From assembly GCA_951406725.2 (NCBI GenBank), contig OX597814.1, positions 58,280,001 to 58,344,000 on the forward strand: a stretch of 64,000 nucleotides of DNA, given 5' to 3'. The stretch comes from Octopus vulgaris (taxonomy: Eukaryota). The position numbers were made by a program, and so were the translations under genes. Under the pieces are notes generated by a model. The model was given only the letters and a program-made list of their open reading frames with translations, made no database searches and had not been told where the DNA came from. This document shows, one piece after another, positions 39,342 through 52,049 of the stretch; position 1 is the first letter of the stretch; each line of letters starts with the position of its first letter.

Positions 39342-42254
39342 GAAGTTATGGATGTACTATGTTGTTGCTACTTTTATCATTCTGTTGATAGAGATCCTGG
39401 CACTCATGAAATGAGGTATGATGACAATCTTCCTATGCGACTAGTTATGATTTGGAGTTTTCCATGAACCAAAGTAGATGGAACGATCTTCATAATATAT
39501 AATTTTAACTTTAAAGATGTTCCCACGTTAAGTTGTTATACTATAATAGTTATACTATAAAATGCATAACAGTTCATAGTATCAGAAAACAGAACGTTTT
39601 AACAACTGAAAAATTTCAGGCACGTATTATTTAACAGATTATCCTAATGGCAAATATATCTCCTTTCGCCAAAGCAATCAATAGTCTCAGTTATTACTTC
39701 TTTTTATTGATTTATCTCTTCGTGGACCATTCAAATTAAATACACATCTGCAATTAAAAGAGATAACGATAACCAGTATCTATATTTGCATTAAATATTT
39801 TCATTATTGTGGCATCGCTTTGAAACTAGGTTTTTTTCCCTCTTTTGTTGGAACTCAACAGTTTCAGCTTCATATAATGTTTTTTAAGCAAGACAAAAGC
39901 ATCCGCCATGTATAATTCGTTAACTTAGCAGTCAATTTCCTTTTATATTTTGATACACTGGCAATATTAATGGCTAGAACGGGCTTCTTTATATGAAGCC
40001 CAACGCAAGATTTACCTAATATATTATCATTCGTCTACCAAATACTATCCACGCAATTTCCTGCCCAGTATATAAAATCCCAATTAAATTAACAGAATGC
40101 CTTCTGTCTAGAATGTGTTAGTTTTAGACGTACTTATGAAAACCTATAGATTCAAACTCTTCAATAAGAGATTCTAATATTTACTTCACAACACATTTGA
40201 TTGAACACACCACGTTAGCAAATAAGAAAATGAAAGCGAAAATTACCATGTTTTCATTATTTATTCTTGATGCGTCCACGTCTAGGCCTTGTAGCAGATC
40301 CTATTGCTGCTGTTTGCTTTTGGCATTTCTATTTCATTTGTCGATAATGTTATTACCTAAGGTGCTACCATTGCTTGAAACAGCGGTGTGATATCGATGT
40401 TATTCGTTATAGAGAAGGTTTCTATTCACTGTTGGAAGATGATTTTAAAATATTGTTTCCTATATTTAAATAACATTTTATATAGATGTAGCAGCATGAT
40501 TAATTTGATCTGATATTTAAAGGTGATTAATGAGGATCTAGAGTCATTTTTATCCAATATTTTATCATCGCCATTAACTACGTTGAAATATTCAGTATTT
40601 GATGAAGAATGTCATAAAATAAGAAGTAAGCTATTTTATAATATTATCCATCAATACCCGATGAGATTCCAGTCGAAGAAAATTTATGTATTACATAACG
40701 ACTTTCCCTTTGGGAAAGCGTACACATTTCACAATGTTCATCTCGCAAATGTGAAAAGGAGAATTGATGGATAAGCTACGTAAAACACCTCTCTTTCTCC
40801 CTCTCTCCCATCTGTCACTCTCATTCTCTCTCCCTCTCTCCCATCTGTCGCTCTCAATCTCTCTCTCCCTCTCTGGACAGAAACCATAAGAGCTGCTTTC
40901 GATTCGCATGAAATTCAAGAATTCATTTTACTCTATTAAACAGTCTTCAGACTACTCACCTCTCCACGTTTTCTCCATAACCCATATATGTTTCTGATCT
41001 TATGAAACAGTCTCTTCTTGGCAAGAGAGAACATTTTTTTCTTTCTGTGCACTGACAAATTACGGCTACATAATATTTGATGGCTAGCCAGTCGTGATCA
41101 GTCATCGAAAAGAGAGCATGCCATATTTTTATTGTATGTTTTTATCCAGCATAGTCTGACGACCGGACAATATTGCGCAACCTACATATTTAATGTACCG
41201 TGCCCCTACTTAACGGAGGACAACAGTGCATATTCTGATATGTATATTATTCGGTTATTCGGAGCGCAGTATTGCAGTCTAGATATTTTGTACTCACTCT
41301 TGACCGTGCTTATTTCTCTTCACACATCGTTATTATTTAACACCAGGTAGGCATTGATAGAATAGAATAACGATCAAACAAATTCTACAAGCGATGATCC
41401 TGTTTGTTTTACAGCCGATTTTTCTCAGACTATATTATATAAATGGCTAATCTAATTAAAAAGTATTGGCAACTGTTACTATCAGGATGAACAACTAAAT
41501 AATATTTCCCTCATTTGTTTATACGCACATTTATTACGGTGTTCATCACCTTGACCAAAGTGACATCAGGTTAAAGATATCTCAATTATATTTTCTTTCT
41601 CGTCATTTATACAAATCCCAAAGTGTCATTTCATTTCTAAGAGAGAAGAAACGGTATCCTACATAGTTTAAATGTTGTTTTAGCTATTTAAACAAACACT
41701 TAGAGTGTTCCTTATTGGCTCTAGAGAATCCGGCGATGAATGTAAGGAAAGGGAGCAAAGTATTTTGATTAGATCAGGGCAGAAGACGAACAAAAACCCA
41801 ATTTTCCACTGCATAGTTCTTGCATTAATACGCCGAATGATACTGAACTAAGGTTTGTGTGTAAATGTCTATTTTTACTTCTGACTAGGAAGGATAGGAG
41901 TGATTTAGTTGACAGTTGCAGAAAAATCCGTGCATTACAGTGACTTTAGTTGCTGAGATATGAAATGTAAGAAATGGAGTGTAATACAATATCAACAAGT
42001 ACAATTTGCAAGGTTTATAATTATAGTTATGGTTTTCCATTATGCATGCGATCTGAAGGCGTATGTTCCTTGAAGAGAGTAAGTTCGTTATTTTGTAATC
42101 TTTGTGAGGTTCTGGCCTCAAGCATGCTCGGCCTAATTCATGAGGTAACTAAGATTTTGATTTGTGCAATGTTTTTGTTATTTTGTTCAACTGGTCAAAT
42201 GTCGAAGCTGGAAAACTGTAAACATTTTGAAACGATATTTTGCAATTCTTGGTA

Positions 42255-42665
42255 TACTCTCTTTTACTCTCTTTTACTTCTTTCAGTCCTTTGATTGCGG
42301 CCATGCTGGAGCATCGCCTTTAGTCGAGCAAATCAACCCCAGGACTTTTTCTTTGTAAGCCTAGTACTTATTCTATCGGTTTCTTTTGTCGAACTGCTAA
42401 GTTACGGGGATTTAAACACACCAGCATCCTTTGTCAATCGATGTTGGGGGGGGGGGGCAAACGCAGACACACAAACACACACACATATACATATATACAT
42501 ATACACGACGGGCTTCTTTCAGTTTCCGTCTACCAAATCCACTCATGGCTTTGTTCGACCCGAAGCTATAGTAGAAGACACTTGCGCAAAGTTCCACGCA
42601 GTGGGACTGAACCGGAAACTATGTAGTTGGTAAGCAAGCTACTTATCACACAGCCACTCCTATGC
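42255..42665 (-). mobile_element. SINE family A, full-length (counterpart at 48878..49283)
   Basis: Same architecture as 8473..8892. Confidence 0.85.
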
Positions 42666-51700: not shown

Positions 51701-52049
51701 TGAGGAGAGATATAGGATAGTAAAATAGGGTGAGGAATGGGGAGAAAGTGAGACAGTGTGTGTGTTTTTTTGTGTGTGTATGTGTGTGTGTATGTGTCTG
51801 TGTATCTGAAAGGGGTGTCAATGGAAAAGTGAAGGAACGAAAGAAGGAAGAGAGAAAGAATACAAAATTGGTTTACATCTTTACAGGTGGTGAGTTCCTT
51901 CAATAGAAAGTGATGAGTTGATTCTAGGCCTTTAAAAAGTGGTAAAATCAGGGGGCCACCGGGGAAGGTCTTGATAAAAGTTCTGGATTTAATATCATCA
52001 TCATCATCATTCTCCTGCGAGAGAGAGTGTGTGTGTTTTATGTATGTGT
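48783..52049 (+). repeat. Duplicated segment, copy 2 (empty site)
   Basis: Matches copy 1 except that an uninterrupted TA-rich array at ~51351..51472 replaces the 3.2-kb insertion. Confidence 0.95.

Follow-up and report, generated by a model that had tools for sequence, protein, structure and literature searches.

A probably heterozygous, head-to-head Penelope-like element remnant in a TA array of Octopus vulgaris, with its filled and empty copies placed around an assembly gap

A stretch of 64,000 nucleotides (nt) of the Octopus vulgaris genome (NCBI GenBank assembly GCA_951406725.2, contig OX597814.1, positions 58,280,001 to 58,344,000 of the forward strand), called the window below, was found to hold two nearly identical copies of one sequence on either side of an assembly gap, and only the first copy carried an insertion, which was assigned by homology to a Penelope-like element (PLE). 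The explanation considered probable as a whole is that a head-to-head PLE remnant is heterozygous in a TA array and younger than the split of the haplotypes, the two copies being likely those haplotypes. Taken by itself, the allelic nature of the copies is judged quite probable from sequence comparison; that is, they would be the two haplotypes of one locus at overlapping contig ends. All positions are those of the window. The copies were compared by self-BLAST and pairwise alignment, and self-BLAST rows of low complexity were filtered out before the repeats were listed.

The two copies adjoined the only run of N in the window, which was exactly 100 N long and which we take to be the usual filler set where the size of a gap is unknown. 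Three pairs of segments were recovered by self-BLAST, namely, 42161–44438 with 48783–51043, 44543–44743 with 51152–51352, and 48108–48682 with 51474–52049, and the homology reached both edges of the gap to the base. A sequence-only reading of this DNA had described near-identical copies meeting exactly at a 100-N gap and a fold-back of about 3.2 kb inside the (TA)n of a short interspersed nuclear element (SINE) in the first copy only, and both descriptions were borne out. The copies were 98.7% identical, with 41 substitutions in 3136 sites, corresponding to 1.31% (95% confidence interval 0.94–1.77%). The left flank of the TA array had 38 substitutions and 5 indels over 2564 columns, and the right flank had 3 substitutions and 3 indels over 572 columns; the difference between the two flanks was not significant (p=0.07). 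As transitions accounted for 25 of the 41 substitutions (p=0.0003 versus uniform random error), the copies appear to be biologically different rather than noisy versions of one sequence, and this excess fits alleles and paralogues equally. The length difference of 3255 bp was composed of 3204 bp of insert, 39 bp of extra TA array, and 12 bp of net indels. In addition, a 14-nt indel between the copies (42876–42890 versus 49480), with 3-nt microhomology, offers a handy marker to tell them apart.

The divergence of the copies matches the heterozygosity reported for O. vulgaris, which was given as >1.1% (PMC6472339) and as 1.22% (bioRxiv 10.1101/2023.05.16.540928). Moreover, the arrangement resembles the false heterotype duplications described in PMC9516828, that is, near-identical neighbours on one scaffold with a gap between them and an allele-like divergence, the present case being judged from the assembled sequence alone. 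According to that paper, a gap between duplicates on one scaffold is a main mark of false duplication, heterotype cases dominate, and heterozygosity is raised in them. Copy 1 ends within the loop of an older fold-back, and the right arm of this fold-back is found a single time, beyond copy 2, as overlapping contig ends would give. An unlikely alternative is a real tandem or segmental duplication, in which the copies would be paralogues on one chromosome, the gap would hide the rest of the first unit and the start of the second, and the PLE would have entered one of them later. Since any overlapping contig ends show homology to the gap edges, a larger unit collapsed elsewhere is conceivable; a divergence of 1.3% could also be that of a young paralogue, and true and allele-specific tandem duplications are mentioned in PMC9516828. 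It weighs against the allelic reading that an identical string would arise from a true duplication of larger size if its junction fell in the gap. However, no junction is visible, and the true duplications of PMC9516828 were not separated by gaps; both points, together with the octopus-like divergence and the stop of copy 1 in a fold-back loop with a single right arm, argue against paralogues.

The insertion in copy 1 carried endonuclease fragments on opposite strands and therefore consists of two 5'-truncated 3' ends of one PLE, placed head to head with their 3' ends outward. The minus-strand unit, which is inverted and tail-less, spans 47242 to 44847 and comprises the endonuclease end, the microsatellite region, and the left arm, and the plus-strand, tailed unit spans approximately 47258 to 48050. 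When the arms were aligned (44841–45516 versus 48013–47337), 674 matches, 1 substitution, and 3 indels were obtained, all three indels being single-base homopolymer differences; a perfect 34-bp inverted repeat (47305–47338 versus 47209–47242) was also present. At the junction of the two units there are a 62-nt spacer and a 12-nt palindrome, and in element coordinates about 47 nt separate their 5' ends. In the inverted unit, approximately 1.55 kb follows the stop codon, including about 1.3 kb of degenerate microsatellite (45584–46898), which the other unit does not contain; the microsatellite interior showed no strong internal duplication. The right end bears a 37-nt extension that is likely the PLE tail. 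It was not found elsewhere in the window in a search with 14-mers allowing 1 mismatch, and its folding was no better than that of shuffles. The left end of the insert shares TATATA (6 nt) with the TA array. Each arm also contains about 5 units of a 44-bp tandem repeat with an 89-bp higher-order unit (44943–45170 and 47683–47912), just upstream of a hammerhead-like motif.

The identity of the insert was assessed by tblastn with 42 queries, namely, 41 proteins retrieved among 622 candidates by a PLE open reading frame (ORF) at 388–1122, and that ORF itself. Most of the 41 proteins were annotated with reverse transcriptase (RT) domains. The insert was matched by 32 of the 42 queries at E<0.01. 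In a controlled rerun at E<1e-3, 31 of the 42 matched the insert, and none of the 42 matched either the reversed insert or the empty copy. The best match was to amino acids (aa) 716–772 of P0005, with 81% identity over 57 aa and an E-value of 6e-21 (2 matches among 2 candidates). P0005 is an unnamed protein of 772 aa with an RT domain (PF00078, RYLDD motif), a CX4CxxC linker, and a CCHH-type GIY-YIG domain. The endonuclease remnant covers only the stretch downstream of the GIY-YIG core, and no RT sequence was detected in the 5'-truncated insert with the 42 queries. It counts against the assignment that Pfam gave no match on the endonuclease remnant, the Pfam scope being 7 ORFs and then the best 140 of 562 candidate ORFs. 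The nearest relatives, P0005 and P0043, both have a CX2-5CxxC linker upstream of a C-terminal GIY-YIG domain, a mark of the Neptune/Nematis clades, as do 38 of the 43 proteins inspected, and the insert does not contain this region. On this homology, the insert is classed as a truncated member of the PLEs with a C-terminal endonuclease (EN+), and the linker motif of its nearest relatives points to Neptune/Nematis rather than Penelope/Poseidon. As regards the direct or inverted pseudo-long terminal repeats (pseudo-LTRs) of EN+ PLEs, inverted arms and opposite-strand endonuclease fragments were found. The PLE label given in the sequence-only reading thus agrees with the protein homology and with the terminal anatomy, namely, the tail and the inverted arms. 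Two other classes were considered and rejected. Naiad/Chlamys elements, with an N-terminal endonuclease and no canonical hammerhead, did not fit because the endonuclease fragment ends in a stop codon and aligns to the C-terminus of RT-endonuclease proteins. A DNA foldback or terminal inverted repeat transposon, which should have equally long termini and an interior that either is unrelated to retroelements or encodes a transposase, was dismissed since the 37-nt tail makes the two ends unequal and both strands of the interior carry PLE endonuclease.

The target of the insertion was a TA array that sits where the internal microsatellite of a tRNA-type SINE lies, as seen in an alignment of seven stretches including four other SINE copies and the target. 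SINE copies were multiple and dispersed in the window according to self-BLAST. All four of the fuller copies inspected had a B-box-like motif, in two of these four the best-scoring match was the expected A-box, and the target copy had no head. With a SINE-derived ORF of the window, one protein was retrieved among 2 candidates, a predicted protein of O. vulgaris at 64%. Both SINE halves were in register on either side of the array, in the filled and empty copies alike. The arrays of the filled site (103 and 57 nt, total 160 nt) and that of the empty site (121 nt) differed in length and in their interruptions, which were not in register. Therefore, the cut site cannot be read from them, nor can a target-site duplication, and in the array lengths (160 versus 121 nt) duplication and slippage are indistinguishable. 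The empty allele is the target class, not the letter-for-letter state before insertion. It had been claimed that the empty copy shows the target as a plain TA array with intact unique flanks. The flanks are indeed intact in the SINE alignment, but the array has 4 C interruptions and is not plain; similarly, the class of target can be read from the empty copy but an exact cut site or target-site duplication cannot, as the arrays differ between the alleles.

The restored SINE also bears on whether the filled structure is real. It is very unlikely that this structure is an artefact of a thinly covered contig end, whether through a misjoin in TA, a somatic event represented by few reads, or a consensus that lost 1.7 kb of a longer palindrome. 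The insert does lie in the last 4 kb before the gap, its microsatellite interior looks noisy, and the arm indels are without exception homopolymer differences of one base. However, the anatomy matches PLE biology in detail, the flank differences are rich in transitions, and the SINE resumes in its proper orientation and register on either side of the insert. A resumption of this kind would not be produced by a fold-back chimeric read, and this candidate was rejected on that ground.

For dating, the arms were assumed to be identical at birth, so that arm divergence dates the insertion and flank divergence dates the split of the copies. The arms differed at 1 of 663 sites and the flanks at 41 of 3136 (Fisher p=0.006), making the arms approximately 9-fold less diverged; at the flank rate, 8.7 arm substitutions were expected (P(<=1)=0.002). 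Moreover, the left arm of the older fold-back was found in both copies. As the arms are less diverged than the flanks and the older fold-back is common to both copies, gain on one haplotype is favoured over excision. Some points weaken this dating. At the rate of the right flank alone (0.52%), the arm test was not significant (P=0.14); with about 570 bp on each side (local count 8), it was borderline (P=0.054); and gene conversion or polishing may homogenise arms. Using the calibration of PMC13282606, in which a Jukes–Cantor distance of 0.09 equals 25 million years (My), rough ages of 0.2 My (0.005–1.1) for the arms and 1.8 My for the flanks were obtained. The word recent is used here relative to the split of the haplotypes, which the insertion would postdate without having to be new in this animal, and in that relative sense the recency proposed in the sequence-only reading is supported. 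With the slightest chance of all, the copies would be allelic and the filled state ancestral, the palindrome having been cleanly deleted by recombination or annealing between the flanking TA arrays, for which the 103- and 57-nt arrays supply direct homology on both sides, the insert already carries one deletion, inverted junctions are described as deletion-prone (PMC8701086), and the arm test fails at the right-flank rate, but against which stand the low arm divergence and the neighbouring old fold-back kept on both copies.

Table 1. Features of the two copies, the insertion, its target, and the neighbouring fold-back (window positions; a dot is entered where no strand applies)
Feature	Position	Strand	Remarks
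Copy 1 (filled)	42161–48682	+	6522 bp; last base adjoins the gap
Gap, 100 N	48683–48782	.	only gap of the window; likely a placeholder of unknown size
Copy 2 (empty)	48783–52049	+	3267 bp; first base adjoins the gap; single-copy sequence beyond 52049
tRNA-type SINE, near-complete	42260–42661 (copy 2: 48882–49278)	-	in both copies; B-box-like motif in head
Target SINE, 3' half	44555–44743 (copy 2: 51164–51352)	-	self-BLAST and SINE alignment
Left TA array, filled site	44744–44846	.	103 nt; last 6 nt (44841–44846) are the microhomology with the element end
Insertion	44847–48050	.	3204 bp; two 5'-truncated PLE 3' ends head to head, 3' ends outward
Left arm, 3' end of the tail-less inverted unit	44847–45516	-	contains 44-bp tandem repeat (44943–45170)
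Minimal-hammerhead-like motif, U3-A8 core variant, left arm	44889–44929	-	descriptor scan
Putative 3' untranslated region (UTR) of the inverted unit	45517–47067	-	UTR assignment from place downstream of the stop codon
PLE GIY-YIG endonuclease C-terminus	47068–47241	-	last 57 codons and stop; coding match 47241–47071
Central inverted junction	47239–47263	.	10-nt direct repeat 47239–47248 / 47249–47258; perfect 12-nt palindrome 47252–47263
Endonuclease fragment, tailed unit	47258–47338	+	P0005 aa 700–726, 85%
Deletion breakpoint, tailed unit	47337–47338	+	1694 nt missing versus the inverted unit; 2-nt TA microhomology
Right arm, 3' end of the tailed unit	47337–48013	+	arm alignment
Minimal-hammerhead-like motif, U3-A8 core variant, right arm	47926–47966	+	descriptor scan
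One-sided extension	48014–48050	+	37 nt, right end only; likely PLE tail
Right TA array, filled site	48051–48107	.	57 nt
Target SINE remainder	48108–48158 (copy 2: from 51474)	-	cut short by the older fold-back
Older fold-back left arm, copy 1 version	48152–48581	-	11.5% diverged from the right arm
Empty site	51353–51473	.	121-nt TA array, 4 C interruptions
Older fold-back	51518–52479	.	arms 51518–51946 / 52066–52479; 45 substitutions/392 columns (11.5%)

As to how the insertion formed, the favoured course begins with target-primed synthesis at the tailed end and continues with self-priming. An autonomous Neptune/Nematis-type element would have supplied the RT and the GIY-YIG endonuclease and nicked the TA array of the SINE, and complementary DNA (cDNA) primed from the outer start site would have given the tailed unit; the 37-nt extension is present at the right end only. 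This unit is 5'-truncated within the endonuclease region, near 47258. The cDNA end may then have folded back about 47 nt inside itself and been copied in reverse, producing the inverted unit. The inverted copy would have been joined to the other TA end at the 6-nt TATATA microhomology, which is present in the sequence. From the resulting palindrome, with arms of approximately 2.4 kb, 1694 nt are now missing on one side. Because in self-priming the inverted unit would be copied from an undeleted partner, this loss would have come later. Finally, the large heterozygous difference would have blocked the merging of the haplotypes, and the scaffolder would have set both contig ends around the 100-N placeholder.

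Several observations bear on this sequence of events. Junction palindromes have been read as self-priming on an antisense template (PMC3846280), and in the present model the first-strand cDNA would be that template. The spacers of four of the five fold-backs in the window were short (10, 21, 62, and 119 nt), and that of the fifth was 564 nt. At the tail-less end, 6–7 nt of microhomology was present in three of the four fold-backs with visible ends, namely, the present one and, as seen by eye, that at 14436 with a TA array and that at 51518 with the SINE, a small sample assembled post hoc, and only 1 nt was seen at the fold-back at 30117. A PLE origin of the fold-backs at 14436, 30117, and 51518 is presumed, and no match to PLE proteins was found in them by tblastn with the 42 queries. 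Asymmetric deletions at inverted junctions have been described as stabilising (PMC8701086), and simple self-priming has the weakness of needing the 1.7-kb deletion to be secondary. The fuller picture, in which a newborn PLE palindrome was caught in mid-repair, with self-primed arms of 2.4 kb, a stabilising one-sided 1.7-kb deletion, and a tail-less end sealed at target microhomology, is offered only tentatively.

A different course of events, regarded as doubtful, is dual priming, in which both nicked strands would independently prime cDNA from RNA at two start sites bounding the tail, the cDNAs would be joined end to end, and the 1.7-kb deletion would represent a template jump. It draws on PMC11167929, where the Poseidon protein of the anole nicks each strand and extends it, starting at two RNA sites separated by the tail and with no target homology. 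Each unit of the insert holds sequence missing from the other, and the junction with short templated filler would also suit this mechanism. Truncations that arose independently, however, would not be expected to lie only about 47 nt apart, four of the five fold-backs in the window have spacers <120 nt, and the tail-less end here shares 6 nt with the target, unlike the in vitro start site.

Both arms of the insert contained a minimal-hammerhead-like motif. A strict descriptor scan gave 3 matches in the window and 0 in 40 shuffles, and a relaxed scan gave 5 matches, each of them located in a fold-back end, the mean over shuffles being 0.11 (11 of 100 shuffles had one). Minimal hammerheads of PLE pseudo-LTRs, including the U3-A8 variant, are described in PMC4209133, and the present motifs are similar to them in the 4-bp helix I, the U3-A8 core covariation, and the palindromic helix III; the truncated PLEs of that paper have paired motifs on opposite strands, as in the two arms of the insert. 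Some results tell against a ribozyme. The descriptor was written post hoc, after the motif had been seen; Rfam, run on the whole window at gathering thresholds, gave 0 matches and no hammerhead; and the folding of the motif was no better than that of shuffles (z -0.07). The U-U mismatch with which stem II opens and the lack of an Rfam match also set the motif apart from the hammerheads of PMC4209133. It is regarded as a candidate ribozyme.

The window contained further repeats. A second PLE family occupied 1–1440, with an ORF of 245 aa (388–1122) comprising the thumb, a CX4CxxC linker, and the GIY-YIG core, with a frameshift near its end. Its arms are inverted (1–388 / 953–1339, 6 substitutions/387), the left one running off the window, and a U3-A8 hammerhead-like motif lies at 1395. 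A near-perfect palindrome at 14019–14436 lies between TA arrays, with arms at 14097–14260 / 14271–14436 (164 matches, 0 substitutions, 1 indel) and a 10-nt spacer. Each arm has a canonical C3-G8 hammerhead-like motif, and about 78 nt extend beyond the arms on one side; this palindrome is likely a further young remnant of a PLE and may be polymorphic. The palindrome at 29795–30117 has arms at 29859–29977 / 29999–30117 (4 substitutions/119), a 21-nt spacer, a one-sided 64-nt extension, and TA-rich flanks, and no protein match or hammerhead match was found in it. The older fold-back at 51518–52479 truncates the target SINE at a 7-nt microhomology, has its right end in a TA-rich repeat, and holds a degenerate hammerhead-like core, recognised by eye only. 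A degenerate inverted repeat with approximately 12% arm divergence lies between TA arrays at 59657–59960, and a 107-bp tandem repeat (2.7 copies, 88% matches) at 30480–30757.

Pfam matches in the scanned ORFs of the window (best 140 of 562) were of transposon, zinc-finger, or low-complexity type only. A decayed Tc1/mariner-type transposase was present at 55955–56946, with a helix-turn-helix domain (HTH, E 5e-4) in one reading frame and DDE_3 (E 4e-16) in another. The minus-strand ORF at 57736–58137 contains two C2H2 zinc-finger-like motifs below the Pfam cut-offs and is possibly the C-terminus of ORF2 of a long interspersed nuclear element. A GC-richer segment at 34376–34858 on the minus strand, possibly an ORF1 remnant of a retroelement, combines an acidic/basic ORF with a zinc knuckle (zf-CCHC, E 5e-6). 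No host exon was found in 42161–52049, where 0 of the 13 overlapping ORFs had a Pfam match (among the best 140 of 562 ORFs).

The closest published systems are the Neptune/Nematis EN+ PLEs of PMC8557442, for which an inverted 5'-truncated copy, a one-sided tail of 30–40 bp, a bias to (TA)n, and duplications unreadable in microsatellites are described. The present insert is like these elements in having an inverted 5'-truncated copy beside the main copy, a tail at one end, a (TA)n target, and no readable duplication. Unlike them, it is a non-coding remnant with neither RT nor GIY-YIG core, its stop codon is followed by an unusually long stretch with a microsatellite, and its tailed unit is the shorter one, by the 1694-nt deletion. 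The Penelope insertions of Adineta vaga (PMC3846280) share the head-to-head inverted structure, a short junction palindrome, and microhomology-mediated internal deletions; as at this locus, they also offer a tail, of 31 bp, and a filled/empty allelic pair, about 2% apart, that was used as evidence. In that case, an 8-bp target-site duplication was legible in unique sequence, and the insertion carried a host gene. In contrast, the target here is a microsatellite with no readable duplication, and no host gene was detected. A filled/empty PLE comparison is thus already published for A. vaga, and recent PLE activity in O. vulgaris is already reported, with 31 families and 336 recently active insertions (PMC13282606). 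No report of a filled/empty PLE site in octopus was found in the literature searched, the coverage of which was partial.

The locus is likely a known assembly artefact combined with a known kind of element, that is, an ordinary, probably young, heterozygous insertion. For the assembly, the scaffold probably counts approximately 3.3 kb twice, and the surplus should be purged. For the biology of the octopus, the insertion is one more indication of recent movement by a TA-targeting PLE family. Its value is modest and lies in clean end anatomy, namely, a tailed end, a microhomology end, a junction palindrome, and a secondary deletion, which bears on how the inverted repeats and tails of PLEs form. 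If the palindrome caught in mid-repair were the rule in octopus, the tail would mark the primed end and the tail-less end would be a repair joint, unlike the in vitro model with two start sites. If so, uncollapsed or phased octopus haplotypes would yield many filled/empty pairs bearing on the origin of PLE inverted repeats and tails.

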